A stretch of DNA of 35,867 bases, taken from positions 1-35,867 of the IMG/VR virus record IMGVR_UViG_3300001348_000041; one strand, given 5' to 3'. The notes beneath the pieces are model-generated. The model was given only the letters and a program-made list of their open reading frames with translations, did no database searches and had not been told where the DNA came from. The position numbers and the translations under genes were made by a program. The DNA comes from a virus. Taxonomy: Duplodnaviria > Caudoviricetes. Below, piece after piece: positions 772-32,621 of the stretch. How positions within the stretch are numbered: position 1 is the first letter of the stretch; each line of letters begins with the position of its first letter.

Positions 772-1696
772 CGGTGCGACCACGTTAAATGGTCATGTTG
801 ATCTGGGTAGTAACGGAGACGATAACATCTCGGTTTTAGGTAAATTTGATACTAACCTTCGACCAGATGCTACTAATTCTTACACTCTTGGTACTTCTGA
901 TCTTAAATGGAGACATGCTTACCTACACCAAACGTTATTCGCTAGTAATGCTCAAATTACTGACAGTGCTGATATTGCAAACTTCAATATCAACACCAAC
1001 ACAATAAAGAATACTACTACTGGTATTAATATTGATGCACAAGGCGATATCACATTAAACGCAAAGGGCGATGACATTATTTTTGAAGGAACATTCAACG
1101 GTGTTGATTCCTCCAGAGTAACCTTTGATCTAGGTAACGATAATAGTTCAGTGGTTCAACGTGTTGTTAACAGAAATCTTATTCTTGAGGTTGATAAGAA
1201 TATTTATCTTGATGCCAACGAAGGTCGTGTCTACTTACGTGATTCGGCATCGGACAATAGACTCCAAGTACACTTTACTACTGGAACTGGTACTGAAATA
1301 GATGTGTCTAATGGTAGTCTGACATTTGATGTTAATGGTGACATTGTACTTGATGCAGACAGTGGTGATGTACTACTTAAAGACGGTGGAACTCAGTTCG
1401 GTAGATTCGAGAATACTTCGGGTAACCTAAAACTATATTCAGGTACTACCACTGCAATGACATTCGATGGTGCGAATGTTACAACATCTGGAACTATCAC
1501 GCCTGGCACAACACTAAATACTACTGCAACCGAACTTGTCGGTGCGATCAATGAGATAGATAGTGATCTTGGTACGAGAACAAGTTTATCTAGTTTCTAC
1601 GATTCACATAACCAAGATATAGTGACCGCTCTAAATCGTGTAGCAGATAGAATAATAGATGTTTACGATGCGAGTGGAACTCTACTGAATAATTAA
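668..1696 (+). CDS. Tail-fibre-like protein, probably the C-terminal continuation of the upstream ORF
   Basis: It has the same GDIVLDA and PDATNSYTLGTSDLKW repeats, an LNTTATELVGAINEI motif and the C-terminus VYDASGTLLNN. Confidence 0.7.
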   Translation: MEAIRVITFEDSDAVFENDVNIEGDLDVDLTLNVDGATTLNGHVDLGSNGDDNISVLGKFDTNLRPDATNSYTLGTSDLKWRHAYLHQTLFASNAQITDSADIANFNINTNTIKNTTTGINIDAQGDITLNAKGDDIIFEGTFNGVDSSRVTFDLGNDNSSVVQRVVNRNLILEVDKNIYLDANEGRVYLRDSASDNRLQVHFTTGTGTEIDVSNGSLTFDVNGDIVLDADSGDVLLKDGGTQFGRFENTSGNLKLYSGTTTAMTFDGANVTTSGTITPGTTLNTTATELVGAINEIDSDLGTRTSLSSFYDSHNQDIVTALNRVADRIIDVYDASGTLLNN

Positions 1697-1708: not shown

Positions 1709-4700
1709 ATGTCCACAGATCTAGTGCTGAAGTTAAAGGCTGCAAATGGTGATTTGCAACAAATAACTTCTTCAGAAGAAAATTACCTAGCGTACCGAGC
1801 GGGACTTCAGTTGAAATCTTCGGCCGGTACGTCTGTGGGTGATCTAACAAATACTCAGGTAAGTGGTTCAACAGCGGTTGGATCTCATATTGATACGAAG
1901 TATCTCGAATCTGTCGGTGATCATCCGGTAGACGGCACTAATATAATAACTGTCACGTCAGGGTTATACCAACGAGGCGGTACAGCAGATTACAACAGTA
2001 TACAGAACGGGAACACTAGATTCAAACGACCCGTATCATATTCCACTAAAGATGGCAAGGTTGGTATCCATCAATTTGCTGATTCGGATATGAATGTCCT
2101 TGTCGATAGATTGAACAGTATCATCGCAACCAACGACTATGTTGGGTGTTACAAACTAGGGGCGACATCGCCCGGTTCTGATTATACAAGTAAGTTCGAA
2201 GCGTTCTCTGATACTCGTACCGATAATTCGGTCACCCCATATTACATATGGCAGAGAACCACTCAGACTTCACCTACATCTTTTGACGTAGCGCATATTC
2301 AAGATAGTGATGGGTATGATGGTATTCAAATGATTAGTGACGGTAACCTTAATTATACTTTCGGTCAGTGGGCTAAAACTAGACGTGCGATCGCTGGTAA
2401 CATTGGTTCTTATCAGTTACGTAGTTCTTCACAGGGAGTTCCGACTGATACTGGATCTTGGAAGTCCGTGGGTAGTGCGACAGATACTAGAAACGATCTA
2501 ACACCAAAAGCTTACACTCGTACTCGCGTCTCTTCATATGCGTTTAACAACTACACTGGTCGAGTATCGACTTACAGTGGAGAATATGTTAACAACAGTG
2601 TTGGTCTCTATACAGGTAATTTCTTAGGTGACTACACCAACTATGTGAATGCGTTTACGGGTAACTACAACCGAACGTTTGTAGGAGACTTTACTAGGGA
2701 ATATGTAGGTAACTACCTTCGAACACGTACATCTAATTTTAATAGAGTATCAACTCGAACCAGAACTTCCAATTTTATTGGTAACTACACTGGTGATTAT
2801 GCCGGTAATTACGTTGGTGAGTATACAACTACCCGATCATCCATATTCACGGGTAATCGAACCATTACTCGAAACTCGTCATTCACTGCAACACGAGCGT
2901 CAAGTTATACTGGTAACTATAACCGAAACTTCATAGGTGATTTCGTAGGTGACTATTCTAGAGGTTTCGCTGGTGACTACGCCGGTAACTACGTTGGTAA
3001 CTTCTTAGGTAACAGAGAGTCGGCCTTTACACGTACTAGAGTTTCCTCATATAATAGAACTTTCGTAGGTAACTACAACAGTCTTCGTCAGTCGTCTTAT
3101 TCGCGGGATTTTCTCAATACTAATACGGTTTATTATGCGGGTAACTACGCTGGTAATTATATTAAGGAACGCACGTCTGCTTTCGCAAGAACCCGTATTA
3201 GTAACTATAACCGAACAGTAGTTGACAGTTATACTGGTAACTTCGCGGGTGACTACGCTGGTAATTATGCCGGTAACTATACCAACTATGTTGTCCCATT
3301 TGCTGGTAACTATACAGGCGACTTCGTAGGTAACTATGTCAACTATGTTAATCAGTATACTGGCAACTACCTTGGCGACTACACCAACTTCGTCAACGCC
3401 TATATTGGTGACTTTACCCGTGCGTATACTAGAACTCGTAACAAGGCAAGTAACTTTACACGCGAAACCAATTTCGCGAGGAATCGTTACAGTTCCTACT
3501 CACTAAATTACGTTAGAGTATCTGCGAGAGCTGTGGGTCTCACCTCATACATAACCGCTGTTCAAGGCCCTCATGGTGGTGGTGCTCCAATTGAAGTAGG
3601 AATAACTGTTCCCGCTAATCAAAATGCATTTATTAGGTATCAGGCGTTTACTAGATATCAAAATGGATTCTTCCAGAGTACTTACTATCCTGTAGCGTTT
3701 GTTGGGCCCAACTACATTGGCACCGCATTTGGTCGAATGACTGTGTACACGGGCGCGGGCGGAGACTTCGCAAGAATACCCACCTTTCCCCGCGCATCTG
3801 CTCGTACAATTACATATAGTGGTGCCACTGGTGATGAAGGTCTTGGCGACAACATGACGACCACTAGTTACATCGGGGACTTTACTAGAGACTTTGCTCG
3901 ATTGTTCACAGGTGATTTTGTAGGTACTGAATCATTTGCTGGCAACTTGGCCTTTGCGGGTAATTATGTTAACTATGTAAATGCGTTTACTAGAACCAGT
4001 ACTAGAGTTTTCCAGAGAACTTCGACCCGTTCTTCGACTAGAGCATTTACCAGAGAACGCAATACAATATTTACCAGAGAACGACTTAGCGCATTTACCA
4101 GAACGTCAACTAGAACCAGTACTAGAGATAGTACTAGCGTTTTCACTAGAAACCGTGTATCTAGTTATAGCCGTGGTTTTACAGGTAACTATGTCAACTA
4201 TGCCGGTGTATTCACTCGTGTGATGATCTACGTTTCGACTCGCACTAGTTCAAGAGATTTTATTGGTAACCGAATATCTTCTTATGCAAGAGACTTCATC
4301 GGTAATTACAGTCGGAATCGTGTATCTGGATACTCTAGAGGATTCATAGGCAACTATGTCAATGATTTCCAACGAACACGTGTGACTGATTCTACTCGAA
4401 CTAGTACTCGATCAAGAACTTCAACTTATCAACGGACTCGTGTTACCCCAAGAACATCTTCATACCAGAGAACTCGTGCGTCCACGTTCAGTAGAACACG
4501 AGCGTCAAGTTATATCGGAGATTTTGTAACTGATCACACCGAAGATTACGTAGGCGACTTCACTCGAACTAGTACTAGAACCAGACAGGTTGCGTATGCT
4601 GGGGATTATACTGCGGAATATGCTGGTGATTACACTGGTAACTATGTCAACTATGTGAATGCGTTTACTGGTAACTACGCTGGTAATTATGTGAACTTAG

Positions 4701-4936
4701 TTAATCCATTTACTAGAGACAGAATATCTTCTTACACAAGAGATAGAGTATCTACATTTGTTGGTGAGTATACTAGGGTGTGTTCAGAAACCTATATAGG
4801 TAACTACACTGGAGTTTATACCAGAGCTTTCGGTACTAACTCAACACAATCTTTCTTGGGTAATTACACAGGGATAACAGTTTCAACAACATCTAGTGTC
4901 ATTGATACTTATACGTTATATGTTAGAAAATCCTAA
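1709..4936 (+). CDS. Giant mirror-repeat fibre-like protein A (1075 aa): base domain, tetrad-repeat arm, ~112-aa tip domain, return arm
   Basis: Long ORF with [FY]xG[ND] and STRT/RxSx tetrads. Its N-terminal domain and C-terminal YTLYVR motif are shared with the next gene. Confidence 0.8.
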   Translation: MSTDLVLKLKAANGDLQQITSSEENYLAYRAGLQLKSSAGTSVGDLTNTQVSGSTAVGSHIDTKYLESVGDHPVDGTNIITVTSGLYQRGGTADYNSIQNGNTRFKRPVSYSTKDGKVGIHQFADSDMNVLVDRLNSIIATNDYVGCYKLGATSPGSDYTSKFEAFSDTRTDNSVTPYYIWQRTTQTSPTSFDVAHIQDSDGYDGIQMISDGNLNYTFGQWAKTRRAIAGNIGSYQLRSSSQGVPTDTGSWKSVGSATDTRNDLTPKAYTRTRVSSYAFNNYTGRVSTYSGEYVNNSVGLYTGNFLGDYTNYVNAFTGNYNRTFVGDFTREYVGNYLRTRTSNFNRVSTRTRTSNFIGNYTGDYAGNYVGEYTTTRSSIFTGNRTITRNSSFTATRASSYTGNYNRNFIGDFVGDYSRGFAGDYAGNYVGNFLGNRESAFTRTRVSSYNRTFVGNYNSLRQSSYSRDFLNTNTVYYAGNYAGNYIKERTSAFARTRISNYNRTVVDSYTGNFAGDYAGNYAGNYTNYVVPFAGNYTGDFVGNYVNYVNQYTGNYLGDYTNFVNAYIGDFTRAYTRTRNKASNFTRETNFARNRYSSYSLNYVRVSARAVGLTSYITAVQGPHGGGAPIEVGITVPANQNAFIRYQAFTRYQNGFFQSTYYPVAFVGPNYIGTAFGRMTVYTGAGGDFARIPTFPRASARTITYSGATGDEGLGDNMTTTSYIGDFTRDFARLFTGDFVGTESFAGNLAFAGNYVNYVNAFTRTSTRVFQRTSTRSSTRAFTRERNTIFTRERLSAFTRTSTRTSTRDSTSVFTRNRVSSYSRGFTGNYVNYAGVFTRVMIYVSTRTSSRDFIGNRISSYARDFIGNYSRNRVSGYSRGFIGNYVNDFQRTRVTDSTRTSTRSRTSTYQRTRVTPRTSSYQRTRASTFSRTRASSYIGDFVTDHTEDYVGDFTRTSTRTRQVAYAGDYTAEYAGDYTGNYVNYVNAFTGNYAGNYVNLVNPFTRDRISSYTRDRVSTFVGEYTRVCSETYIGNYTGVYTRAFGTNSTQSFLGNYTGITVSTTSSVIDTYTLYVRKS

Positions 4937-4991: not shown

Positions 4992-7900
4992 ATGGCATTT
5001 TCTGATATACCGATTAGAATCAAAGAATCGTATCAAGGCGGCAGCAACGCTAACTTTGATGCGAATGATTTGGCGCAATATTCTCCGACACAAGAACAGA
5101 TATTATCGTACCTTGCCGGAAAGGAAATACTATCATATTCCCCCACAAACACTACAGACAACTATACTGGTTACATCGGTAACGGTGCATTAGGGTCACT
5201 AAACACTAGTGCCAATCGATCTAGTATAGGTAACTATATCGATACCCGATATGGTCAATCAGACGGAACTCACCCGTCATCGAATATATCGATAACCACA
5301 ACTACAACAGATCTTTTTACTAGGAACCCATTGTTCTCTAGTATCTCAAGTGCAAACAACAAACTGGGATCCAGTGGTCTTCCCGAATCAGGGTTCAAAT
5401 GGCCCGTGATATTTGACGCAGATCTAAAGAGTATGCGTCTACCTACATTTGCGGAGACAGAATCGTTTTCCGATAGAATCAATAGTTACATTGCGACTAA
5501 CACTTGGCCTGGCACATATTACTTAGGTACATCTGCGCCCAGTGATGGTGATACTTGGGCGGTACACCAATCGTCCGTCTTTTCTGATACACTGAACACT
5601 CTTGCTGCCACTAACTACAACCTATATGTAAAGACAGACTTAGCGTCACCCCCAACCACAGATGCGAATAATCGTGCGATCTTTAGTTGGATGGGTAATA
5701 CAGAGTCATACGACACTGATACCACTGACGTTAGAAATCACGGTCTGAACGAAACCATTGCAATGGTCACCACAACTGGTGTAAGATATTCTGCGATATA
5801 TCCTAATACAGTCATAACAGAGAAACAGACTGACGGTACCACCAGTACACTAGTGACCACTAGTTCGACTGAACCTGCCAGAGGGCCCATTAATGTAACA
5901 GCTGGTCGAAGTTACTATGGTGACAAACCTATTGAGTTACACAAGAATGATGGTGGACATGCCTTGGTTCCTTGGTCTTTGCGTGGTCGTGAGTTCGGTG
6001 CGTTCTCTGATCGATACGGAGACAGTACATATTTCTTATTTGCAAAAGAAGCGTGTACCGTAGAGTTTTTTGTAAACGAAACAAACGGTATTAATGGCAC
6101 CGCAACAAGAACTGTATCACTAAGTGCAAACACAGTGACCGAAGAAACTTTTACTGGAATTGATGGTCAGTGGGTGTTTATCACGTCTAATAAAGACATC
6201 ATTGTTTCAGCAAAAGAACAACAAGGAGATAAACTCAGAATACCACCCGCTGTTCAAACCGTATATCGTTCATACGATTCTTACGAAAGAACCACCGTAA
6301 ACACTGAACCCACAGATGCCAGCGGTAATTCTATATCCGACAGTAATGGTTATAATGTTGTCGCATTTAGAGCCGGTGATGGTGCCGGTAGTGATGCAAG
6401 CCAAGGTCTAGGTGAAGAGTTCTTATCAAACACTTTTTCTTGGGGTGATGCACTAAAAGACTATAACATTGTCGCAAGAGATGCCGACACCGTTGTTACC
6501 GTATCATATTGGAACACGTCAGATAACGATTGGGTGGTACAAGAGTATCACTACATGAACGCAAACAATATGGTTGCACGTAATGGTAATGACGGGCCAG
6601 GCACTGACGGTGCATCAGGTGATCAGGACGGTGCTAGCACAGTATCACCATTTGCGGGCGGTGCCAACCTATGGAAGTTCGAATCAAACAATCCTATCTT
6701 GGTGAGAGTCAACGATACAGCTGGTGATGAAGAACTAGTGATGGGTTGGACATCTACTCTTGCTGAAGATGGATATGATACGGGAACCTTCCAAGGTTTT
6801 CGTGAGATGACTGACTATCAGATGGGGTTCACCTTCGGTCAACTCGCAGCTAACCGTAGAGCAACTATAGGTAACATTGGATCATACGAATTACGTAGTT
6901 CATCTCAAGGTGTTCCAACAGCATCTGGAACATGGACAGTAAGGGGAACAGCAACCGATACACGTAAAGATACGAGTGATGTTGCCTATACTAGAACCCG
7001 TGCATCCAATTACACCAGTGTAAGTACAAGAGATTTTGCACGTACTAGAAATTCTAACTTTACTCGTACTAGTCAACGGATCCGTAACTCTAGTTATACT
7101 GGTAACTACAATAGAGACTTTACAGGTAATTACACCGCAGATTACACAGGCGATTATTCTCGAACACGTGTTAGTAGTTATAGTCGTGGATTTGTCGGTA
7201 ACTATAGTCGAGACTTTGTCGGAAACTATTCCAGAACTAGAACATCTAATTTCACTAGAAATCGGGTAACACCTAGAAACTCTAATTATACGGGTAACTA
7301 CTTAGCGTCACGTTTTTCAACGTTCTCAGCTGATTACACACGAACTCGTGATAGTAGTTTCACCGGCAACTATGCACCAAATTATGTTGGTAACTATAGT
7401 CGAGACTTTGTCGGAAACTATGCACGAGATTTCATTGGTAACTATACAGGCGACTTCGCTAGAACATCGACTAGAGTAAGTACTCGTGGTCGAGTCAGTA
7501 ACTATACTAGCGTGTTTACCAGAGATCGCACTAGTGCATATACCACTGTCTTCACTAGAGATCGCGTCAGTGCCTACACAACAGACTTTACTCGTACCAG
7601 AGTTTCATCGTATAGCGGTGTTTATAGTAGAACAAGAGTTTCATCGTATACTAGTACATCAACTCGTACTAGAGTAGAGACGTACAACCGAAACTTTGCT
7701 GGTGATTATGTTGGGAACTATGCTCGCAATTTCGCCGGAGAGTACAGTCGTAACTTTGTAGGAAATTATAGCCGAGACTACACTGCGGAATATGCTGGTG
7801 ATTATGTTGGGAACTACTCTAGAAACTTCGGTGGGGATTATACTGGAGACTTCACACGTTCATTCGAAGGAAACTATTCTAGAAACTATGTCGGTAACTA

Positions 7901-10900
7901 TGCCAGAGACTTCGTAGGTGATTTTACTGGTAACTATAACCGAAACTTCATAGCATATTTTGCTGGTGATTTTACTGGTAATTACACCAGAACTTCACAG
8001 AGAGTAAGTACTCGTGGCCGAGTCAGCACATATTCTAGAACTCGTATAACACCCCGAAATAGTTCATATACCAGACTTTCTGTACGTAACAGAAGTAGTG
8101 CATATACTAGCGTCTCTACACGCAATAGAAGTAGTGCATATACTCGATCCAGACCATCTACTTATACTAGAAATAGAAGTAGTGCATATACTAGCGTCTC
8201 TACTCGTACATCCACACGTACACGTAACTCTGCTTACACTCGTTCAAGGGTTTCTGCATATACCAGAACTAGACCTAGCAGTTATAGTGGCGCATATACA
8301 CGTTTACGACTCAGTGCATATACTCGAACCTCCTCAAGAACAGTGGCCTATGCGGGTAACTATTCCAGAGTATCAACCTATACGGGTAATTATAGTCGTG
8401 CATTTGCCGGCAATTATACTGGTAACTTCTTAGGTAATTACGCTAGAGGTTTCGCTGGTAACTACGTTGGTAACTATCAAAGAGGATTCGTTGGTGACTA
8501 CGCCGGTAATTATGTCGGGAACTATTCTAGAAACTTTGCTGGTAACTACGTTGGTAACTATCAAAGAGGATTTGCTGGGGATTTTGTTGGTAACTTTGTA
8601 GGTAACTATGGCCGAAACTTAGTATTTACAGGTAACTTTGTAGGTAACTACAGTCGTGGATTCTCTGGTGATTTTACTGGTAACTACAGTCGTGGATTCG
8701 CTGGTAACTACACTGGTAACTATCAAAGAGGATTTGCTGGGGATTTTGTTGGTAACTACACTGGTAACTATGCTAGAAACTATGCTGGTAACTTCACTGG
8801 TAACTATGCTAGAAACTATGCTGGTAACTTCGTTGGTAACTTCACTGGTAACTATGCTAGAAACTATGCTGGTAACTTCACTGGTAACTATACTCGTGTT
8901 CTTTACTACGTAGGAAACGCTGCGTATACCCGTGTTTCGGTCAGGTATGGATCGTTTGCTCGAACCCAAGCCTTTTCGAGATATTATTGGCCTAACGCTT
9001 ACTTCTACACTCGAAATTTGTATTACGTGGGTACTGGGTATTATACGGGTAACTATAGTCGTGGTGTCGCGTTTAGTCGGACAAATTCATATACTCGTAC
9101 ATCGACTCGTACTAGTTCGAGAGCTTTCACCCGCGTGTCAACTAGAACATCGACTCGTACTAGTGCGAGAAACTATCTTCGTACATCGACTCGTACTAGT
9201 GCGAGAAACTATCTTCGTACATCGACTCGTACATCGACTCGTACTAGAAACAGCGCTTACACTCGTACATCGACTCGTACTAGAAACAGCGCTTACACTC
9301 GGCAATCGACTCGTTTACGACTCAGTTCATATACTCGTACACGAGCTACTAATTATTCTAGGGGTAGTACTTATACTCGTACACGAGCTACTAATTATAC
9401 GCGCACGAGACTGAGTGCTTATACTGTTACATCAACTCGTACTAGAACCAGTTCTTACAACCGTACATCGACTCGTACCTCGACTCGTGTACGACTCAGT
9501 TCATATGCTCGTACTTCAACTAGAACACGTTATAGTGCATATACTAGAACCAGAATTACAGACTCTACCAGAAGTCGAGTAAGTACGTACACTCGCGCTA
9601 GAGGGTCAACTCTAGTTTTTACTAGAACTCGAAATTCTACATTTAACTACACTGGTAACTACTCACGTGGTTTCACTGGCGATTATACTGGTACTTACAG
9701 TCGGAACTTTGTAGGAAACTATACCAGAGGTTTCACTGGTAACTACAATCGTGGTTTCGCTGGTGATTATGTTGGTAACTACACTGGTAACTACGCCCGA
9801 ACGTATGTCGGTAATTATGGTAGAACCTTTGTAGGAAACTATAGTCGAGTCTTCGCTGGTGATTATACTGGTAACTATGCTCGTGCGTTTGCGGGTGATT
9901 ACACAGGTAATTACAACCGAGCGTTTGTCGGTGACTTTATTGGTAATTATGGTAGAACCTTTACGGGTGATTATACTGGCGATTATATCGGGGACTACAC
10001 AAGAATATCTACACGTGTTAGTGCAGTTACTCGCACATCAGCATATACTAGAACTCGTATAACGCCTAGATCTAGTACCTACGCACGAACTAGAGGTAGT
10101 AGTTACGCACGAACTAGAATCGAAAATTACACATCTTTATTTACTAGAGTCCGAACTAGTAGTTACGCTCGTACTTCAACCAGAACATCGACTTCAATTC
10201 GACCGTCAGCCTATGTTCGTACACGTACTAGTGTTTACTCACGAGTTCGCGGAAGTAACTATACAAGAACATCGGTTAGGACTAGAGTCTCTGGATATTC
10301 TCGTAGTTTTGCCGGTGATTATATTGGCAACTATACTCGTGGTTTTGTTGGAGAATACACTGGTACCTATAATAGAGACTTTGCTGGTAACTATACAGGC
10401 GATTTCACTAGAACCTTTGCTGGTGATTACACAGGTAATTTCACCAGAGTATTTGGTGGTAACTATACAGGCGATTTCACTAGAACCTTTACGGGTGATT
10501 ACACAGGTAATTACACATCTCATTACACAACAGACTTCATCGTCACAAGAGTATCTGCATATAGTAGAACAAGACCTTCTACATATACTAGAGCTCGTAC
10601 CTACGCAAACTTCGTAGGAGAAACAGGAACTTACGCTGGTGGATTTACACGTATTCGTCCATCAAGTTTTGCTGGGAATTACACCGGCAACTATGCACGG
10701 GAGTATGTCGGTGACTTCTTGAGAGTAAGTGTTGGTCAGTACGCAGGTGATTTCATCGGAAACTATACCGCAGACTATGTTGCTCATTATGCACGTACTA
10801 GAGTTTCCGCATTTACCAGAAATAGAACATCGGTATATACTCGTGGTTTTGTTGCAATATATACTAGATTGAGAAACAGTAATTTTAATAGAAATAGAAC

Positions 10901-11099
10901 ATCGTCATATACCAGAGAGTCTATAACTCCATTCACGGGAAATTATGTTGGTGATTATGTCGTACCTTACCTTGGAAACTATACCGCAGATTACACAGGT
11001 GATTATGGTAGAAATTTTGTAGGAAATTACTCAGGAACAACAATTGGACAAAGTACATCCACTGTAGAGACTTATACACTGTACTTACGAACTGCATAA
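4992..11099 (+). CDS. Giant mirror-repeat fibre-like protein B (2035 aa)
   Basis: Paralog of protein A (shared GNIGSY[QE]LRSSSQGVPT and TDTR motifs and C-terminal YTLYLR). Repeat region spans residues ~666-2016. Preceded by a late promoter. Confidence 0.85.
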   Translation: MAFSDIPIRIKESYQGGSNANFDANDLAQYSPTQEQILSYLAGKEILSYSPTNTTDNYTGYIGNGALGSLNTSANRSSIGNYIDTRYGQSDGTHPSSNISITTTTTDLFTRNPLFSSISSANNKLGSSGLPESGFKWPVIFDADLKSMRLPTFAETESFSDRINSYIATNTWPGTYYLGTSAPSDGDTWAVHQSSVFSDTLNTLAATNYNLYVKTDLASPPTTDANNRAIFSWMGNTESYDTDTTDVRNHGLNETIAMVTTTGVRYSAIYPNTVITEKQTDGTTSTLVTTSSTEPARGPINVTAGRSYYGDKPIELHKNDGGHALVPWSLRGREFGAFSDRYGDSTYFLFAKEACTVEFFVNETNGINGTATRTVSLSANTVTEETFTGIDGQWVFITSNKDIIVSAKEQQGDKLRIPPAVQTVYRSYDSYERTTVNTEPTDASGNSISDSNGYNVVAFRAGDGAGSDASQGLGEEFLSNTFSWGDALKDYNIVARDADTVVTVSYWNTSDNDWVVQEYHYMNANNMVARNGNDGPGTDGASGDQDGASTVSPFAGGANLWKFESNNPILVRVNDTAGDEELVMGWTSTLAEDGYDTGTFQGFREMTDYQMGFTFGQLAANRRATIGNIGSYELRSSSQGVPTASGTWTVRGTATDTRKDTSDVAYTRTRASNYTSVSTRDFARTRNSNFTRTSQRIRNSSYTGNYNRDFTGNYTADYTGDYSRTRVSSYSRGFVGNYSRDFVGNYSRTRTSNFTRNRVTPRNSNYTGNYLASRFSTFSADYTRTRDSSFTGNYAPNYVGNYSRDFVGNYARDFIGNYTGDFARTSTRVSTRGRVSNYTSVFTRDRTSAYTTVFTRDRVSAYTTDFTRTRVSSYSGVYSRTRVSSYTSTSTRTRVETYNRNFAGDYVGNYARNFAGEYSRNFVGNYSRDYTAEYAGDYVGNYSRNFGGDYTGDFTRSFEGNYSRNYVGNYARDFVGDFTGNYNRNFIAYFAGDFTGNYTRTSQRVSTRGRVSTYSRTRITPRNSSYTRLSVRNRSSAYTSVSTRNRSSAYTRSRPSTYTRNRSSAYTSVSTRTSTRTRNSAYTRSRVSAYTRTRPSSYSGAYTRLRLSAYTRTSSRTVAYAGNYSRVSTYTGNYSRAFAGNYTGNFLGNYARGFAGNYVGNYQRGFVGDYAGNYVGNYSRNFAGNYVGNYQRGFAGDFVGNFVGNYGRNLVFTGNFVGNYSRGFSGDFTGNYSRGFAGNYTGNYQRGFAGDFVGNYTGNYARNYAGNFTGNYARNYAGNFVGNFTGNYARNYAGNFTGNYTRVLYYVGNAAYTRVSVRYGSFARTQAFSRYYWPNAYFYTRNLYYVGTGYYTGNYSRGVAFSRTNSYTRTSTRTSSRAFTRVSTRTSTRTSARNYLRTSTRTSARNYLRTSTRTSTRTRNSAYTRTSTRTRNSAYTRQSTRLRLSSYTRTRATNYSRGSTYTRTRATNYTRTRLSAYTVTSTRTRTSSYNRTSTRTSTRVRLSSYARTSTRTRYSAYTRTRITDSTRSRVSTYTRARGSTLVFTRTRNSTFNYTGNYSRGFTGDYTGTYSRNFVGNYTRGFTGNYNRGFAGDYVGNYTGNYARTYVGNYGRTFVGNYSRVFAGDYTGNYARAFAGDYTGNYNRAFVGDFIGNYGRTFTGDYTGDYIGDYTRISTRVSAVTRTSAYTRTRITPRSSTYARTRGSSYARTRIENYTSLFTRVRTSSYARTSTRTSTSIRPSAYVRTRTSVYSRVRGSNYTRTSVRTRVSGYSRSFAGDYIGNYTRGFVGEYTGTYNRDFAGNYTGDFTRTFAGDYTGNFTRVFGGNYTGDFTRTFTGDYTGNYTSHYTTDFIVTRVSAYSRTRPSTYTRARTYANFVGETGTYAGGFTRIRPSSFAGNYTGNYAREYVGDFLRVSVGQYAGDFIGNYTADYVAHYARTRVSAFTRNRTSVYTRGFVAIYTRLRNSNFNRNRTSSYTRESITPFTGNYVGDYVVPYLGNYTADYTGDYGRNFVGNYSGTTIGQSTSTVETYTLYLRTA

Positions 11100-11141
11100 A
11101 TAATTGCACGATATATCATCGAAACAACTGAGGAGATTGAG

Positions 11142-11612
11142 ATGAGTAGTAGAAAATGGTTAGATAATGCTTTTTGGGAAACTGAAGACAAGAAAGAATT
11201 AAACTGTATTTTAGAATTAGAAGACGATATTGGCCGAGTGACTAGACAGGTCATGCGTCTGAATCAGTTAGATAAAGAAGGTAATGTTAACGAGGATTAT
11301 GAAGAAGTCGTTGAGGTATTAACTGAAAAGTTAATTGACGATAATACGTCTGATCGTAAGGTTCGTAAGAAACAAGAGAAGGAAGAGAAACAACAACGTG
11401 ACGTTGAACACGCGAAGGCACGTAAACTTGAAGATCTTTTCAACTATAAGATGGAAGCGTTCGAAGTAGAAGAAGTAAAATCTTCGAAGAACCGTAAACT
11501 GAAAGCAAAACTTAGACGTGCAAAGAGTAGAATCGAAGTTGACATGTACGCGATTATGATTCTCCAAGATAGTATAGCTTTGGAAGAGGCAGAGGTCGAT
11601 GGAAAAGAGTAA
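11142..11612 (+). CDS. Hypothetical charged, coiled-coil-rich protein (possible fibre chaperone)
   Basis: Strong RBS (gaggag), K/E-rich helical C-terminal half, overlaps the next gene. Confidence 0.65.
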   Translation: MSSRKWLDNAFWETEDKKELNCILELEDDIGRVTRQVMRLNQLDKEGNVNEDYEEVVEVLTEKLIDDNTSDRKVRKKQEKEEKQQRDVEHAKARKLEDLFNYKMEAFEVEEVKSSKNRKLKAKLRRAKSRIEVDMYAIMILQDSIALEEAEVDGKE

Positions 11613-12324
11613 GGGTATTGTAATTGTTGCATCGAACAAACCAAACTTTTATGTTTATGCAATCAACCTGATAGATTCTATACGTGACTACCACGAAGAT
11701 GCCAACATTACATTGGTATGTGAACCTTGGATGATCGATGAACGTGCAGAAGACTTAGCGGATAATATTATACATTGCGACAACCACTACCGTGCCAAAC
11801 TATGGGGCATGGCGAAATCTCCTTATGATATAACAATGTATATTGACGCTGATATGGAATGTGAACACGAAGACATCGCAAAGGTCTACGATGAGTTAGG
11901 TGACTATGATGTCATGTTCTCTGAATTGACAGATGATCGTGATTACATTTATGCTGAACGAGACTTCAGTACTCCCGAAGGGCCCGCGAAGTTTACTCTT
12001 TGTGGGGGTGTTTGTCTTTACGACATGACCAAACCTATTGTCCGTGAGTTCATGGATGACTGGTGGGATTTGACTCGTAGACAGATGAATGACTCTTGGT
12101 GGCCAGAAGGATATGCAGACAGTCTCAAGTCTTGGGATCAGTTCTCTCTTTGGTGGTTAACTGAGAAAGACCCGAAGTACAAGGATCTGAAAGTAGGAAT
12201 ATTTAAAGATGATTTGCGTTGGAATTACTATAACGCATTTAATTGGCAAAAAACTAGACCAGAAGGTGAAGTTGTACTGAGACATTACTCTTGCGGTCTG
12301 GATAAAGACGGACATATTTTATGA
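11599..12324 (+). CDS. GT-A fold glycosyltransferase (GT8 or nucleotide-diphosphosugar transferase-like)
   Basis: N-terminal KGIVIVA strand and A..LI.SIR helix, K..SPYD.TMYIDAD (DxD motif), GGV, DQ..L and a C-terminal RHY. Confidence 0.8.
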   Translation: MEKSKGIVIVASNKPNFYVYAINLIDSIRDYHEDANITLVCEPWMIDERAEDLADNIIHCDNHYRAKLWGMAKSPYDITMYIDADMECEHEDIAKVYDELGDYDVMFSELTDDRDYIYAERDFSTPEGPAKFTLCGGVCLYDMTKPIVREFMDDWWDLTRRQMNDSWWPEGYADSLKSWDQFSLWWLTEKDPKYKDLKVGIFKDDLRWNYYNAFNWQKTRPEGEVVLRHYSCGLDKDGHIL

Positions 12325-13034
12325 GTGAAGTAGACTATAGGATGCAAACCATCCCTATTAATAATCCAGAGTTAATTCAAATTCTTGATGACTATAGGAA
12401 AGCTAGAGAACTCGATGGGTTCGAAGAGTATATGCATTTGTCATGCAAAAATGTTTCCGACAAAAAGGACTACTTTACTGGCCCCGAATATCTTCAAGAA
12501 ATTATTGCACAAGGTCAACGACACGAAGGATTCCCAGATCAAATGTATGGTTATGAGTTTCGAGTTAATACTAAACTGCATAGATTCTTTAAAAATGACT
12601 TTGCTCAATCTACTCACGAAGCGGGATTCCGTTCTGATTTTATGAAGTTGTTGACGGAAACGAATACCAAGATGATTAATTTCATGGGTTGTCGTAACAA
12701 TGCATTATCTGCTGCGTACCCAAAAGACGGATTTATCGCTTGGCATAACAATGCGAATGCAGCTGCGTGGAATATGATTTTCACATACAGTGAAACAGGT
12801 GATGGTTGTTTCAAGTATTGGGATTTAGAAAAACAAGAGATCGTGGTCATGCAAGATAAGCCAGGTTGGCAGTTGAAAGCGGGATACTTCGGTAGTTATA
12901 GAGAAGAAGATAAAATTTTCTATCATGCTGCAGAGACTAATTGCTGGCGACAAACCGTTTCTTTTTGTTTCGATGCGTCATCGACTTCACAACAATTCCG
13001 TGAAGAAATAATAGATGAAATAATGTCGGAATAA
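12321..13034 (+). CDS. 2OG-Fe(II) oxygenase-like (double-stranded beta-helix) protein, HxN variant
   Basis: YPKDGFIAWHNN, a distal YH and WRQTVSF match the HxD...H...RxS layout, with Asn in place of Asp. Confidence 0.6.
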   Translation: MSEVDYRMQTIPINNPELIQILDDYRKARELDGFEEYMHLSCKNVSDKKDYFTGPEYLQEIIAQGQRHEGFPDQMYGYEFRVNTKLHRFFKNDFAQSTHEAGFRSDFMKLLTETNTKMINFMGCRNNALSAAYPKDGFIAWHNNANAAAWNMIFTYSETGDGCFKYWDLEKQEIVVMQDKPGWQLKAGYFGSYREEDKIFYHAAETNCWRQTVSFCFDASSTSQQFREEIIDEIMSE

Positions 13035-13047
13035 AGAACCTAATTGT

Positions 13048-13055
13048 TATAAATA
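13048..13055 (+). promoter_or_regulatory. T4-type late promoter
   Basis: Intergenic TATAAATA. Confidence 0.85.
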
Positions 13056-13092
13056 AAGCAAGACAAGAAAACATTTTTTAAAGACGGAACTA

Positions 13093-13449
13093 ATGGCAGA
13101 ATACGAAGACTTTAACATTGACCAAGGTGCAGATGTTGCAATTGAATTGCATCTTCAGAACACTGACGGTACTAAAAAAGACTTGACCGCACATACAGTC
13201 ACGTCTAAAATGAAAAGAAATTACAATGCTGGCGCAGAAGGCACGGTAGAATTTACTACAACCCTCGCTAATCCGCCAACTAATGGAGTAGCAATACTCG
13301 CATTGACAAACGAACAGACTGATCAATTGGTCACGACTGGTCGTTACGTATATGATGTAGAAGTTTCTTATGTGGATGAAGACAATAATATTATTATTGA
13401 ACGTGTCCTCGAAGGAAAAATAAAAGTTAACCCATCAGTTACACGATAG
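13093..13449 (+). CDS. Small virion structural protein (Ig-like, BppU-N-like adaptor)
   Basis: IDQGAD...DLT...G...L.LT..QT..L..GRYVYDV...RVLEG.I.V.P.VT pattern common in T4-like tail regions. Confidence 0.7.
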   Translation: MAEYEDFNIDQGADVAIELHLQNTDGTKKDLTAHTVTSKMKRNYNAGAEGTVEFTTTLANPPTNGVAILALTNEQTDQLVTTGRYVYDVEVSYVDEDNNIIIERVLEGKIKVNPSVTR

Positions 13450-13462
13450 GGGAAAGGGAAAG

Positions 13463-13687
13463 ATGGCGGTTATAGTTACTACTAACGGAACGACTAGAGT
13501 AAAGAAAGTTATTGTAGGTCGTCCCGTGAGAAGAATTAACAGTGCTACTGGCAATATCAACAACTTGGCGGGAGTTGATACGTCCGGTGCAGTGCAAGGT
13601 AGTGTCCTCGTTTATGATGAAACATCTTCCAACTTTATAGCAATCACAGACTTAGAAGATCAAAATCTTAACGGAGGCCAATACTAA
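13463..13687 (+). CDS. Small tail-associated hypothetical protein
   Basis: L..VD...GSVLVYD repeat unit and a C-terminal NGGQY resembling the DGGTY end of the next gene. Confidence 0.6.
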   Translation: MAVIVTTNGTTRVKKVIVGRPVRRINSATGNINNLAGVDTSGAVQGSVLVYDETSSNFIAITDLEDQNLNGGQY

Positions 13688-15468
13688 TGGCAAGTAAAAT
13701 TCTAATAAAACGTTCGGGAAGCGCTGGTGCTCCCTCTGCGTTACGTTCAGGTGAAATGGCATATAGTTATGCTACTGGACATCAAAAATTATTTATAGGT
13801 TGGGGCGCAGAAACAACGCCTGGCGAAGCGGACAACATCGGTGTTATCGGTGGTGTTTACTTCACTAGTATGTTGGATCATGCTGCCGGTACACTGACCG
13901 CATCGTCAGCGTTGATTGTTGATGCTAACAAAAAGATTGACAACTTAAAAGTAGATAACCTCGATCTTAATCTCAACACAATCAGCACAACAAATGCTAA
14001 CGGTAGTCTTGTTTTAGATCCAAATGGAACAGGTAGTGTTGATGTCAGTTCGTCTAAGATTATCAATGTTACTGATCCAACTGCTAATACTGACGCAGCT
14101 ACTAAATCATATGTTGACACTCAGGTAGGTAATGTTGTATCGGACTTCACTATCAGTGATGGAACAGACTCAGATGTATTTACTACTGGTCAGACATTAA
14201 CGTTTGACGGTGGAACAGGTATAACTTCAACAGTAACAGATAACCAAGTTAGTCTCGCCATCACTAACACAGGTGTGACCGCCGCCACCTATGGTACTAC
14301 TACTGCAATTCCTGCGATCACTATAAACGCACAAGGTCAAATTACTTCTGCAACTACTAACTCGATCTCAACTACTCTGGCAGTTGCAGTAGATAATGCT
14401 GGTGCCGCTGGAGACTCTTCTGGTACAATCGCATTAGGTTCTGATACATTAACGTTTGTTGGTGATTCATCTCAAGGTATTGAAGTCTCTTTCAATAATG
14501 AAGATAAGAAACTTACTATTTCAAGCGAAGATGCAACAGTAACTAATAAGGGTGTTGCAAGTTTTGCTACGGCAGACTTTGGAGTTTCGAGTGGTGAGGT
14601 AACTATTAAGGCTGGTGGTGTATCGAATACACAACTTGCTGGTTCTATTGCAAACGGCAAACTGACAAATAGTTCATTAACCGTTACTGCGGGTGACGGT
14701 CTTGGTGGTGGTGGTTCAGTAGCACTTGGTAGTTCAGTATCTCTTAATGTAAACGTAGATGACTCTACTATTGAGACAAATGCCGATACACTCCGTGTTA
14801 AAGACAGTGGTATTACTAACGCTAAACTTGCAAACGACAGTCTCACAATTGGTACTACTGAAATTGCACTTGGTGCATCATCCACAGTACTTGCTGGTTT
14901 AACTCAGATCGATGTCGATAATATCCGAATCAAGGATAACACAATCAGTACAACTGATGCTGGTGACACGACACTTTTCATAAATCCCAACCCTGTTGGT
15001 GATTCTGGTACAGTTATTATCCAAGGTGACTTGACGGTTCGTGGTACTACAACAACCATCAACTCCACAGAAGTTACTATCAATGACTTGACACTTGGTC
15101 TTGCAGATAGCGCTGATAATGCTGCAGCTGCAGATGGTGCTGGTCTTATCGTTGGTTCCGGATCATTCTCAGGTGGAACCCGTCCAACGTTCTTGTATGA
15201 AGCATCTGGTGACAAGTGGATAGCTAACAAAACCCTTGACGCAACTATCCTTGGTATGTCCGAGACGATCGATGACCGTGTATCAAGTCTATTGTTGGCT
15301 GGTGAAGGAATCGACCTTACCTATGATGATAATGGTGGTTCATTAACTGTTACCGCAGAAACCGCGACTGATACCAATCTAGGTGTTGCGAAGTTCCCAA
15401 CTGCGAACTTTACGTTAACATCCGGATCTGTTGCGATCAGTACAATTGACGGTGGAACATACTCATAA
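13687..15468 (+). CDS. Tail fibre protein
   Basis: N-terminal IKRS..P..L..GEMAY..LFIG module, DAATKSYVD, G/T/S-rich beta repeats, GDLTVRGTTTTINST and C-terminal IDGGTY. Confidence 0.8.
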   Translation: MASKILIKRSGSAGAPSALRSGEMAYSYATGHQKLFIGWGAETTPGEADNIGVIGGVYFTSMLDHAAGTLTASSALIVDANKKIDNLKVDNLDLNLNTISTTNANGSLVLDPNGTGSVDVSSSKIINVTDPTANTDAATKSYVDTQVGNVVSDFTISDGTDSDVFTTGQTLTFDGGTGITSTVTDNQVSLAITNTGVTAATYGTTTAIPAITINAQGQITSATTNSISTTLAVAVDNAGAAGDSSGTIALGSDTLTFVGDSSQGIEVSFNNEDKKLTISSEDATVTNKGVASFATADFGVSSGEVTIKAGGVSNTQLAGSIANGKLTNSSLTVTAGDGLGGGGSVALGSSVSLNVNVDDSTIETNADTLRVKDSGITNAKLANDSLTIGTTEIALGASSTVLAGLTQIDVDNIRIKDNTISTTDAGDTTLFINPNPVGDSGTVIIQGDLTVRGTTTTINSTEVTINDLTLGLADSADNAAAADGAGLIVGSGSFSGGTRPTFLYEASGDKWIANKTLDATILGMSETIDDRVSSLLLAGEGIDLTYDDNGGSLTVTAETATDTNLGVAKFPTANFTLTSGSVAISTIDGGTYS

Positions 15469-15525: not shown

Positions 15526-15726
15526 TTGAGTACAACTATTAAACATAAGAAGAGCACGGTCAAGGGCGTTGCGCCTGGCACCAGTGATCTCGTTCTAGGT
15601 GAAATTGCGATAAATACCAACGAAGGTATAATTTATATAAAGACCGAAGACTCTAGTAGTGCGGTAGATATCATAGATTTTAATCAACTCAGAGTATATA
15701 ACTCTTCGGGTACAAGGATCAATTAA
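15526..15726 (+). CDS. Small protein made of the fibre N-terminal module plus a short C-terminal motif
   Basis: IKHKKS..P...L.LGEIAINT..G.IYIK, TTG start after ggag, stop overlaps the gp13 start. Confidence 0.6.
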   Translation: MSTTIKHKKSTVKGVAPGTSDLVLGEIAINTNEGIIYIKTEDSSSAVDIIDFNQLRVYNSSGTRIN

Positions 15727-30233: not shown

Positions 30234-31364
30234 TTATCTTATAATATCGATATCGTCTGCATTGACGTTCCAAGTCTCTACTTGTCTACGCAAACGACCA
30301 TCACCCTTGAGTTTGTCATAACGCTTGACGGCATTCTTTCTCCACCATGCGGTAACACCCTCAAGAGAGAATCTGTCAAAGTTCTCTTTCTTGATCAATG
30401 TATCTGTTTCTAGATTCAAATACGCAGGGACATTGTCATACCCATAGGTAGACACGAAAGAACGTTTACGTTCCGTCAGTCCCTTTGCATCCGAATAAGT
30501 TTGACAGAACTTCTTATAGGCATTCTCATCATGTACCTTGAGAGAGGCTTTGATAATAGATGCCATCTTGGTCTGTGTTTTTAGTTTACGAGATGAGGCG
30601 TCCACAGGAACCAAGGGTTCACCACCATTCTTTTCAATGAACCATGCACTTAGTCTGCGGTAGGTGTCGTCATTGATTAGTGGTAAGAAGTTTGAGTCTG
30701 TCAAACCATTGAACCGCAGAAATGGTTTCATACCATCATACTGCGATGCAGACTTTGTTGACCCATATAACGAAGTAGTCTCGAACATGCAGAAGTTTGA
30801 ATTGTACTTCTTGTTCAATGCCTCACGTGTGTGGTGGGAACAACAAATTGCGGCCAGTAACTTACCACCAAGATAGTTGTAACCAAACGGTTGAGTCGGT
30901 ACAATGTTGAACCCCATGATTGCGGAGTCATTGAACCGTTTCATTACGTCTGGATTCATACTGTCTAGTGGTCGTCCTAACCATTCGTTCCGTGGTCTAC
31001 TATTAATAGTAGGAGAACCGAAACGAATCATACCAACAACACTGTTAGTATTCTTTTCCTTGATAACCCACTTCAGTCCCTTGCCAGGAATTGATGCTTC
31101 CACAGGTGCGGACGTGACAATCTCCATGTAGGACATGAACTGTTGTGCGGGCGATTCTTGTATTACAAACTCCATCTCGGACGGATGGATATCGAAGTTG
31201 CTGAACAGATCTTCTTCTGGCCCCATGCCAGGCAGAGAGTACGGAAAGGATTCCATACGTTCCATCTTGATCTGTCTCATGTATTCATCGATGCGTTCTA
31301 TGTTTCCAAAGAACTCATCAAAAGCATTTGCTGCGTATAACGCATCTTTATGTTCTAAAATCAT
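30234..31364 (-). CDS. DUF4338/DruA-like protein
   Basis: G.I.FGSP...R..WLG, P..P..YNYLGGKLLA and ETTSLYG...SQY motifs, recalled from the DruA/DUF4338 family. Confidence 0.65.
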   Translation of the reverse strand: MILEHKDALYAANAFDEFFGNIERIDEYMRQIKMERMESFPYSLPGMGPEEDLFSNFDIHPSEMEFVIQESPAQQFMSYMEIVTSAPVEASIPGKGLKWVIKEKNTNSVVGMIRFGSPTINSRPRNEWLGRPLDSMNPDVMKRFNDSAIMGFNIVPTQPFGYNYLGGKLLAAICCSHHTREALNKKYNSNFCMFETTSLYGSTKSASQYDGMKPFLRFNGLTDSNFLPLINDDTYRRLSAWFIEKNGGEPLVPVDASSRKLKTQTKMASIIKASLKVHDENAYKKFCQTYSDAKGLTERKRSFVSTYGYDNVPAYLNLETDTLIKKENFDRFSLEGVTAWWRKNAVKRYDKLKGDGRLRRQVETWNVNADDIDIIR

Positions 31365-31973: not shown

Positions 31974-32621
31974 ATGAAATTTATTGAAGTGAAGAACCAT
32001 CGTGTTCTTGATATATTAGAAAGATTTCGTTATTTGTATCGTGAGAAATATGATGTTACAAAAACAAGTGATTGCATGACAAGTCATATTGACAAAGGCG
32101 ATCACTTCACATCCGAACAATACCTAGACGAATTAATGAAGAAGGGATCAGACCATGACGGTCTGCCCGCAGCTGCGTACTCGCATCCAATAAAACCTCA
32201 ACACTATAATCAACCGGATGCTGAAGCGAAGGCGTTGTACGAGAAAGACTTCAATGAAATCAACGATCGACTCAAGACAGAATTGGGTCTACATTCTTCC
32301 GCATTGTCTCAGTTGTATCCACCTAAAGGATTTATAGACTGGCACAATAACGCAAATGCGTCATCGTTCAATGTCATATTTACATGGAGTGAGACCGGAG
32401 ATGGTTGGTTCAAATGGGTAGATAACGGAAAGATAAATACTATGCATGACAAGAAAGGTTGGTCGTGTAAGGTAGGATACTTTGCAAGTTACGAAGAAGA
32501 AAGACCAGTCATATACCATTGTGCGTACACTGACTGTTATAGAATTACATTGAGTTTTACATTAGGGTATGATCAAGACTATTGGTTAGATATGATAGAC
32601 TATATAAAGAATGAGGAATAA
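31974..32621 (+). CDS. 2OG-Fe(II) oxygenase-like protein, HxN variant; paralog of 12321..13034
   Basis: YPPKGFIDWHNNANA, FTWSETGDG.FK, DK.GW..K.GYF.SY.E and YHCA.T.C.R.T.SF are shared with the earlier copy. Confidence 0.6.
   Translation: MKFIEVKNHRVLDILERFRYLYREKYDVTKTSDCMTSHIDKGDHFTSEQYLDELMKKGSDHDGLPAAAYSHPIKPQHYNQPDAEAKALYEKDFNEINDRLKTELGLHSSALSQLYPPKGFIDWHNNANASSFNVIFTWSETGDGWFKWVDNGKINTMHDKKGWSCKVGYFASYEEERPVIYHCAYTDCYRITLSFTLGYDQDYWLDMIDYIKNEE

Follow-up and report, generated by a model that had tools for sequence, protein, structure and literature searches.

This report concerns a protein of 1075 amino acids (aa) encoded in a 35.9-kb contig of an uncultured marine T4-like phage (IMG/VR record IMGVR_UViG_3300001348_000041, positions 1 to 35,867; this whole stretch of 35,867 nucleotides (nt) is called the window below). 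Its open reading frame (ORF) occupies positions 1709-4936, and a 2035-aa paralog is encoded next to it. The major capsid protein of the phage shares 69% identity with its counterpart in phage C48C1 and 58-61% with those of Methylophilales, Pelagibacter, and Synechococcus phages. The 1075-aa protein has two long repetitive arms whose units match in mirror order, and because of this order the chain very likely folds back on itself into a long thin stalk. We consider it rather probable that the protein is a single-chain terminal fibre of a T4-like virion, in which a zipped antiparallel ribbon of up to ~110 nm would stand on a three-repeat prism clamping three C-terminal tags of the fibre encoded upstream.

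The two arms match in mirror order

The initial annotation of this DNA, made from the letters alone, had described arms of about 340 residues around a non-repetitive centre, and its coordinates are correct. Position 2513 corresponds to aa 269, the centre (3533-3868) to aa 609-720, and the arms are 340 and 336 residues long. The outgoing arm (2513-3532, plus strand; aa 269-608) is composed of tetrad repeats and four heptads (nt 2633, 3278, 3335, and 3380). The returning arm (3869-4876, plus strand; aa 721-1056) is its mirror complement and has four heptads of its own (nt 3965, 4190, 4643, and 4688). After automatic tokenising, the unit-level alignment pairs the arms in antiparallel orientation with a score of 67.5, against 7.1 ± 8.0 for 300 unit shuffles (maximum 27.5; z 7.5). 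The parallel orientation scores only 8.0. The alignment has 84 slots, of which 48 are strong, 19 weak, and 14 bad, with three gaps. The outermost third is indeed looser, as had been noted: the three thirds of 28 slots contain 20, 17, and 11 strong ones from the tip outward. The unit pairs listed earlier were recovered as well, except that the parser cuts the region of TN/ES and SN/LA differently. The best of 76 circular shifts scores 64.5, which is near the true value, and gapless mutual information located the centre only in the innermost windows.

Under the strict pairing score, no foreign arm equalled the score of the protein's own pair, whether on the right (76 arms) or on the left (76 arms); the top foreign arms were those of the closest orthologs (61, 55, and 53.5). 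A residue matrix trained solely on the 2035-aa paralog, whose 659 pairs include 125 Arg-Tyr, 51 Asn-Thr, 49 Gly-Arg, 43 Gly-Ser, and 40 Phe-Ser, gives the arms a score of 53, while 150 unit shuffles yield -5.6 ± 12.4 (z 4.7).

A residue rule is seen across the arms: Tyr stands opposite Arg, Phe opposite Ser or Thr, and Gly opposite Arg or Ser. Three tests are independent of the pairing score, namely the choice between Phe and Tyr, conservation in an ortholog, and matched change of arm length. In an alignment blind to Phe versus Tyr, aromatic-x-Gly tetrads begin with Tyr in 12 of 12 cases when they face SxRx and with Phe in 17 of 21 cases when they face Ser or Thr (Fisher p 5e-6; p 3e-6 in the paralog). 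Of 119 tetrads compared with the ortholog from locus L001, all have the same residue at position 3 and 114 at position 1, where the other five are Tyr/Phe swaps; positions 2 and 4 agree in just 72 and 86. Between the 2035-aa paralog and its ortholog, the left arm changes by +56 and +12 residues and the right arm by +12 and +56, which makes 68 residues per arm. Two paralogs with a common tip in locus L016 have arms that differ by 163 and 165 residues. Among 45 anchored family pairs, which are not independent of each other, both arms change within 3 residues in 18. A correlation of r = 0.95 between arm lengths is inflated, with anchors restricted to the central 42-58% of the stalks, and was not used.

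The protein also has its own seven-residue unit, as had been claimed: there are eight heptads in it and none in the 2035-aa paralog, and at least three heptads are found in six of 259 family members. The heptad does take a tetrad slot, for in the ortholog from L001 two slots have a YxRx tetrad instead of a heptad. Six of the eight heptads face YxRx tetrads, a count that is partly built into the score.

The symmetry could in principle be a by-product of repeat expansion or of sequence assembly with no structural meaning. The repeats are of low complexity and give high cross scores in permissive alignments, and some near-identical relatives differ in one arm alone. However, the arms are complementary, being neither identical nor inverted in DNA: all 46 arm-to-arm blastn matches are on the plus strand, so the symmetry exists at the protein level and is not a DNA inverted repeat. 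The choice of Phe or Tyr tracks the partner residue, and the pairing positions are invariant. Independent contigs carry the same arrangement; one of them, 2039 nt long, covers nt 2639-4677 with two differences, and the arrangement of the arms is therefore no assembly artefact. Matched arm growth, the pairing rule, and position conservation largely refute the by-product explanation, which we regard as extremely improbable. Contigs of the gene were also found in an RNA library, but this is no demonstration of transcription.

In the proposed structure, the two arms would zip up along their mirror match and form a single antiparallel beta-ribbon that grows from one hairpin of the base. The ribbon would be twisted and two-stranded, with tetrad positions 1 and 3 on one face, where stacks of aromatic residues and Arg may lie beside small residues. 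Each heptad would occupy a YxRx slot with a bulge of three residues. Assuming 0.33 nm per residue, the ribbon could be up to ~110 nm long, and that of the paralog ~220 nm.

A predicted prism and its proposed mounting on the upstream fibre

The base (1709-2512, plus strand; aa 1-268) contains three internal repeats that are detectable in the sequence (mutual HHalign E-values 1e-9, 4e-6, and 1e-5). Each repeat is predicted to comprise a blade of the beta-prism together with a helix and a docking hairpin. The AlphaFold model is highly confident for aa 1-277 and 1045-1075, and the predicted local distance difference test (pLDDT) of the base is mostly >90. In the model, a long strand 1045-1073 (pLDDT 85-97) is placed beside strand 251-277; it closes the base and begins the hairpin. 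The C-terminal strand (4877-4936, plus strand), kept in all aligned members, is thus modelled as completing the third blade. In this model, the entire stalk thus appears to replace the turn of one hairpin of the third repeat.

Four MABP-type beta-prisms lead the 50 matches listed in a structural search against 48,161 chains (Z 7.0, 6.7, 5.9, and 5.4, with the next match at 3.9). They align over 115-123 residues with a root-mean-square deviation of 3.8-5.3 Å, covering 115 of the 152 residues of 3tow. The T4 collar fold of gp10/gp12, also considered for the base, is not among the same 50 matches, which MABP-type prisms lead; this comparison used a monomer model, which may miss a trimeric fold. 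We predict that the base and the last strand form a three-repeat MABP-like beta-prism, comparable with MVB12B (3tow), Plu-MACPF (2qp2), Mp2Ba1 (8b6v), and the P2 domain of perforin-2/MPEG1 (6sb1). The pseudo-threefold arrangement of three internal repeats is common to both, on the side of our protein as a predicted model. Unlike MABP domains, to which it is 8-15% identical with no profile match, the base has an extra hairpin and helix in each repeat and an extended hairpin of hundreds of residues. The MABP domain of MPEG1 is a small precedent: it was likewise missed by sequence and has an inserted hyper-extended hairpin whose tip binds lipid (PMC7593815).

The gene upstream encodes a fibre protein that ends in a C-terminal helix and a tag (1508-1696, plus strand), the predicted trimeric docking site for the base according to tag linkage, alignment, and a model of a related complex. 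The linkage is read from the loci themselves: of 111 loci, 102 have the tag at the end of the upstream gene, with 65 distinct ends, on proteins of ~100 to 1170 aa. The complex was modelled with ESMFold2 for a relative, locus L050, from one family protein and three copies of the 48-residue end of the upstream gene. It scored 0.81, against 0.00 for the best of three controls. Of 157 solved complexes, 116 reach the mark used for such scores, as do 2 of 215 mismatched pairs; these counts are rough here because the job differs from the calibration. Between runs, at least 96% of contacts agree, and the pLDDT of the partner is 75 or higher. Repeats 1, 2, and 3 (aa 3-18, 99-115, and 185-206) each contact tag residues 50-61, and these regions correspond to aa 5-20, 107-125, and 193-213, i.e., to the three hairpins of the 1075-aa protein in the window. 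Judging by this model, the base likely grips the C-terminal tags of the upstream, likely trimeric, fibre, and one base would clamp three tags. The initial annotation had recognized neither the nature of the base nor its attachment partner.

The same tag is also found at the end of another, unrelated gene before gp13. Directly before gp13 in the window, a 66-aa ORF (15526-15726, plus strand) ends in a tag variant and is a candidate second docking site. Nineteen distinct loci span this region; the tag is present upstream in 17 and downstream, between the family genes and gp13, in 18, and 13 loci have two family genes and two tags. Two paralogs and two tags would yield a short and a long fibre. 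Phage C48C1 has the downstream tag and lacks the upstream one. In four related cultured phages there was no match to the tag itself, and one of them matched only the preceding helix. In locus L040 (8555-9964), the tag is instead on a 1837-aa gene before gp13, and the end of the upstream gene presumably resembles the C-terminal domain of T4 gp10, to judge by a motif.

The chain could fold back and its copies still associate, as a six-stranded gp37-like homotrimer or with swapped arms, so that the code would operate partly between chains. No precedent was found for a naked two-stranded ribbon of 340 residues, and T4 gp37 builds the same nested layout as a trimer. In the needle of gp37 (D10-D11), the stem is inserted in the base, the tip is inserted in the stem, and the C-terminus is back in the base; gp37 is a homotrimer with a collar fold, a 50-residue stem, and seven His-bound iron ions (PMC6957217). 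The nested layout recurs in the 1075-aa protein, as mirror pairing and as the C-terminal strand in the base model. In contrast to gp37, its arms are 340 residues long, nearly free of His, and paired by Tyr-Arg, Phe-Ser, and Gly-Arg, and its base is a predicted beta-prism. His-iron sites of the gp37 type along the stem were not found: there are two His in the 807-residue insert, and therefore no gp37-type iron core. Association of copies is also opposed by the base model, which is closed within a single chain at pLDDT >90, and by the complex from L050, where all three base repeats are used on three tags and therefore no tag remains for further copies. Associated copies seem to us quite unlikely.

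A single chain capping a trimeric fibre has a parallel in the gp38 adhesins of T2-, T6-, and S16-like phages. These are monomers with an N-terminal domain on the trimeric fibre end, conserved termini, and a variable middle (PMC12032242). The corresponding mounting of our protein is a prediction from the relative in L050. Unlike gp38, the protein has a different attachment fold, a long stalk of its own, and no polyglycine sandwich; there is one GGG run in the tip instead of five glycine-rich motifs, and no PHROG match. The protein is gp37-like in layout and gp38-like in mounting, yet it fails the defining features of both.

Several observations weigh against a single-chain ribbon clamped on three tags. 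Permissive scorings let foreign arms exceed the protein's own arms (best 161 against 136 among 55; 15 of 76 in another scoring). The lax token score counted Gly-aromatic pairs as good, and the stricter replacement was picked after the foreign-arm wins had been seen. Since two laxer scorings favour foreign arms, arm specificity hinges on the strict score. Five of the 45 anchored pairs change one arm alone, by 24-31 residues. Only 86 of 163 family members score at least 60 under the pairing code, and 46 Arg-poor members score <15. The stalk has no confident model, with pLDDT <50 for 743 of 1075 residues. The top fold match of the base (Z 7.0) falls short of 8, the value that marks a distinctive match for the tool, and Foldseek against PDB and BFVD found nothing at E 0.001. 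The upstream tag is missing in 9 of the 111 loci, and the 1:3 docking was modelled for the relative from L050, not for the copy in the window. The place of the protein on the virion is inferred from gene position.

The central segment as a candidate tip

The central segment (3533-3868, plus strand; aa 609-720) is non-repetitive and lacks a named homolog; compared with the arms, it contains more Gly and Pro and less Arg. The initial annotation had taken it for a ~112-aa domain, and this view is not borne out by AlphaFold: its pLDDT is 30 when modelled alone (3 sequences) and below 50 or near that value in the full model. A hairpin at aa 640-664 appears in both runs with pLDDT of at most 50 and is no evidence of a domain; no internal hairpin stood out in the segment. 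With the tip model at pLDDT 30, the fold search based on it (best Z 5.2) is meaningless. A separate search found no homolog among 192 candidates, Atlas scores were at most 0.78, and Pfam gave no match for this segment or for 22 other central segments. The segment does lie in the middle of the sequence, as had been emphasized, but a mid-sequence tip is not new in itself, since T4 gp37 has one (PMC6957217).

Among 163 family proteins, only two near-identical relatives match the segment (86%), and no significant match was found in orthologs with 52-59% base identity. The suggestion that the tip varies while the base is conserved holds for distant orthologs, where the tip is replaced. It fails for the nearest ortholog, where the tip is 86% identical, equal to the base, and the arms are 76-79% identical. 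This comparison indicates that the tip is exchanged over longer distances and is not hypervariable over short ones. In other members, the central region ranges from a turn of 5-40 aa to a segment of ~250 aa; the paralog has a short turn. Of 260 proteins, 26 carry a recurring module of ~60 aa, detected with a profile built from six of its carriers, either centrally in the stalk or off its centre; the 1075-aa protein is not one of them.

In locus L016, the same tip sequence is found on stalks of 234 and 562 aa (9989-11458 and 11461-13962), which suggests gene conversion or tip duplication between a short and a long fibre.

By its position and turnover, the central segment is a candidate receptor-binding tip, and we rate the chances of this role as nearly even. 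It would be held at the far end of the ribbon and contact the host surface.

Alternatively, the stalk itself may be the working surface. Rich in Arg and Tyr and possibly glycosylated, it would bind an anionic polysaccharide or a membrane, or serve as a spacer or drag filament, with an elaborated turn at its centre and a prism that may bind lipid. Such a role would agree with the 16 of 52 well-paired members that have only a turn of 5-40 aa, with the net basic arms (82 Arg and Lys against 41 Asp and Glu), and with the nearest ortholog, where the tip varies no more than the base does. The family genes are always accompanied by that of a probable glycosyltransferase, and MABP hairpins bind acidic lipids (PMC7593815). 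With 16 for 77 Asn, N-glycosylation sequons show no enrichment. On the other hand, central segments are exchanged while the arm pattern persists, the ~60-aa module is at relative position 0.50-0.52 of the stalk in 9 of its 26 carriers, and Arg-poor members exist. We consider the stalk unlikely to be the working surface.

Gene neighbourhood and distribution of the family

Locus L073 is identical to the window over the 1075-aa gene and extends the view of the gene order: a baseplate-type gene, a 2086-aa gene, an 894-aa fibre gene, the pair of paralogs, and then neck and head genes (names assigned by analogy with the C48C1 annotation). The family genes sit between baseplate and neck genes. Two ORFs of the window, 3-686 and 668-1696, are a single 894-aa gene in L073. 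A stretch of ~95 nt near 437-531 of the window is repeated near 677-770, and contigs of three runs diverge from the window at 675 and rejoin it at 973, so the window probably fuses two alleles in this region.

The 2035-aa paralog (4992-11099, plus strand) has, by profile and pairing, the same base with an insert of ~340 aa, arms about twice as long, and a short central turn. A common base and C-terminal strand had been proposed for the two proteins and were found in both: the base profile matches the 1075-aa protein with E 4e-101 and the paralog in two pieces (5e-31 and 2e-31), and both end alike. The insert (5697-6776) is a non-repetitive region of ~340-360 aa in the third docking hairpin with no Pfam or PDB match.

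Next comes a linked trio of genes (11142-13034, plus strand) encoding proteins of 156, 241, and 237 aa. Of the loci that extend at least 2.5 kb downstream, all 93 have the complete trio. The 156-aa protein is of unknown function. The 241-aa protein, with a weak match to PF00535 in 10 of 32 members, is a probable GT-A glycosyltransferase. The 237-aa protein has no database match; by its motif, we take it to be possibly a 2-oxoglutarate (2OG)-Fe(II) oxygenase. Its gene (12321-13034) has a paralog at 31974-32621 (38% identity; invariant His-x-Asn, His, and Arg), located between tail-completion-like and UvsY-like genes. The trio may modify or chaperone the fibre.

Elsewhere in the window, a 376-aa protein encoded on the minus strand (30234-31364) has a sub-threshold Pfam match to DruA (E 9e-11). 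A 74-aa ORF (13463-13687) between a 118-aa adaptor-like gene and a 593-aa gene has no Pfam match. Two matches in metagenome-assembled genomes probably stem from phage contigs that were binned with them, and no host was named on this basis.

The base profile finds 578 clusters at 50% identity. Locus scans, keeping the best 80 matches of each scan, gave 144 loci, and tandem pairs of paralogs are present in 84 of 142 by a strict motif count. The family is modular, as the initial annotation had suggested: the base is conserved, the central segment is replaced between relatives, and the stalk length is tunable, the inserts spanning 139 to 3081 aa (259 members). Two further members, P0011 and one from locus L130 (1195-3177), have the same base and an insert with a different repeat of the Thr-Ser-Phe/Asp-Pro-Thr type. 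Among 50,697 cultured phage records, the family was found in one, C48C1, as a 3347-aa protein; four related cultured phages, a small control, have none. The C48C1 protein (L002, 19995-30038) has several globular inserts in its returning arm and an exactly duplicated stretch of ~75 aa.

No Pfam, PHROG, or PDB profile for the base is common to the members (88 members for Pfam and PDB). A description of the family was not found in the literature searched, with subscription journals and bioRxiv supplements outside its scope. In the part of the tail fibre atlas available to us (PMC12143355), the words "hairpin" and "prism" do not occur, and tentaclins (PMC10743442) are unrelated to the fold-back family. 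Within reach of these searches, this is an undescribed phage fibre design. Tentatively, and with somewhat less than even confidence, we suggest a class of fibrous proteins: single-chain two-stranded beta-ribbons of 50 to 300 nm with a code-written register and a plug-and-socket prism on a 12-residue C-terminal tag. The tag could be appended to any trimeric fibre on the baseplate or neck side, and the product would be finished by the glycosyltransferase and the oxygenase.

The analysis describes the anatomy of a large family (578 clusters) that lacks annotation in abundant aquatic T4-like phages, and it indicates which part probably determines the host range of these phages. Mounting of the fibre would be explained by the predicted socket, in which a monomer grips a short trimeric tag. 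C48C1, the only cultured carrier found, permits direct imaging. A beta-ribbon that, like an RNA stem, reveals its partner register in the sequence would open a new route to long protein rods of programmable length.

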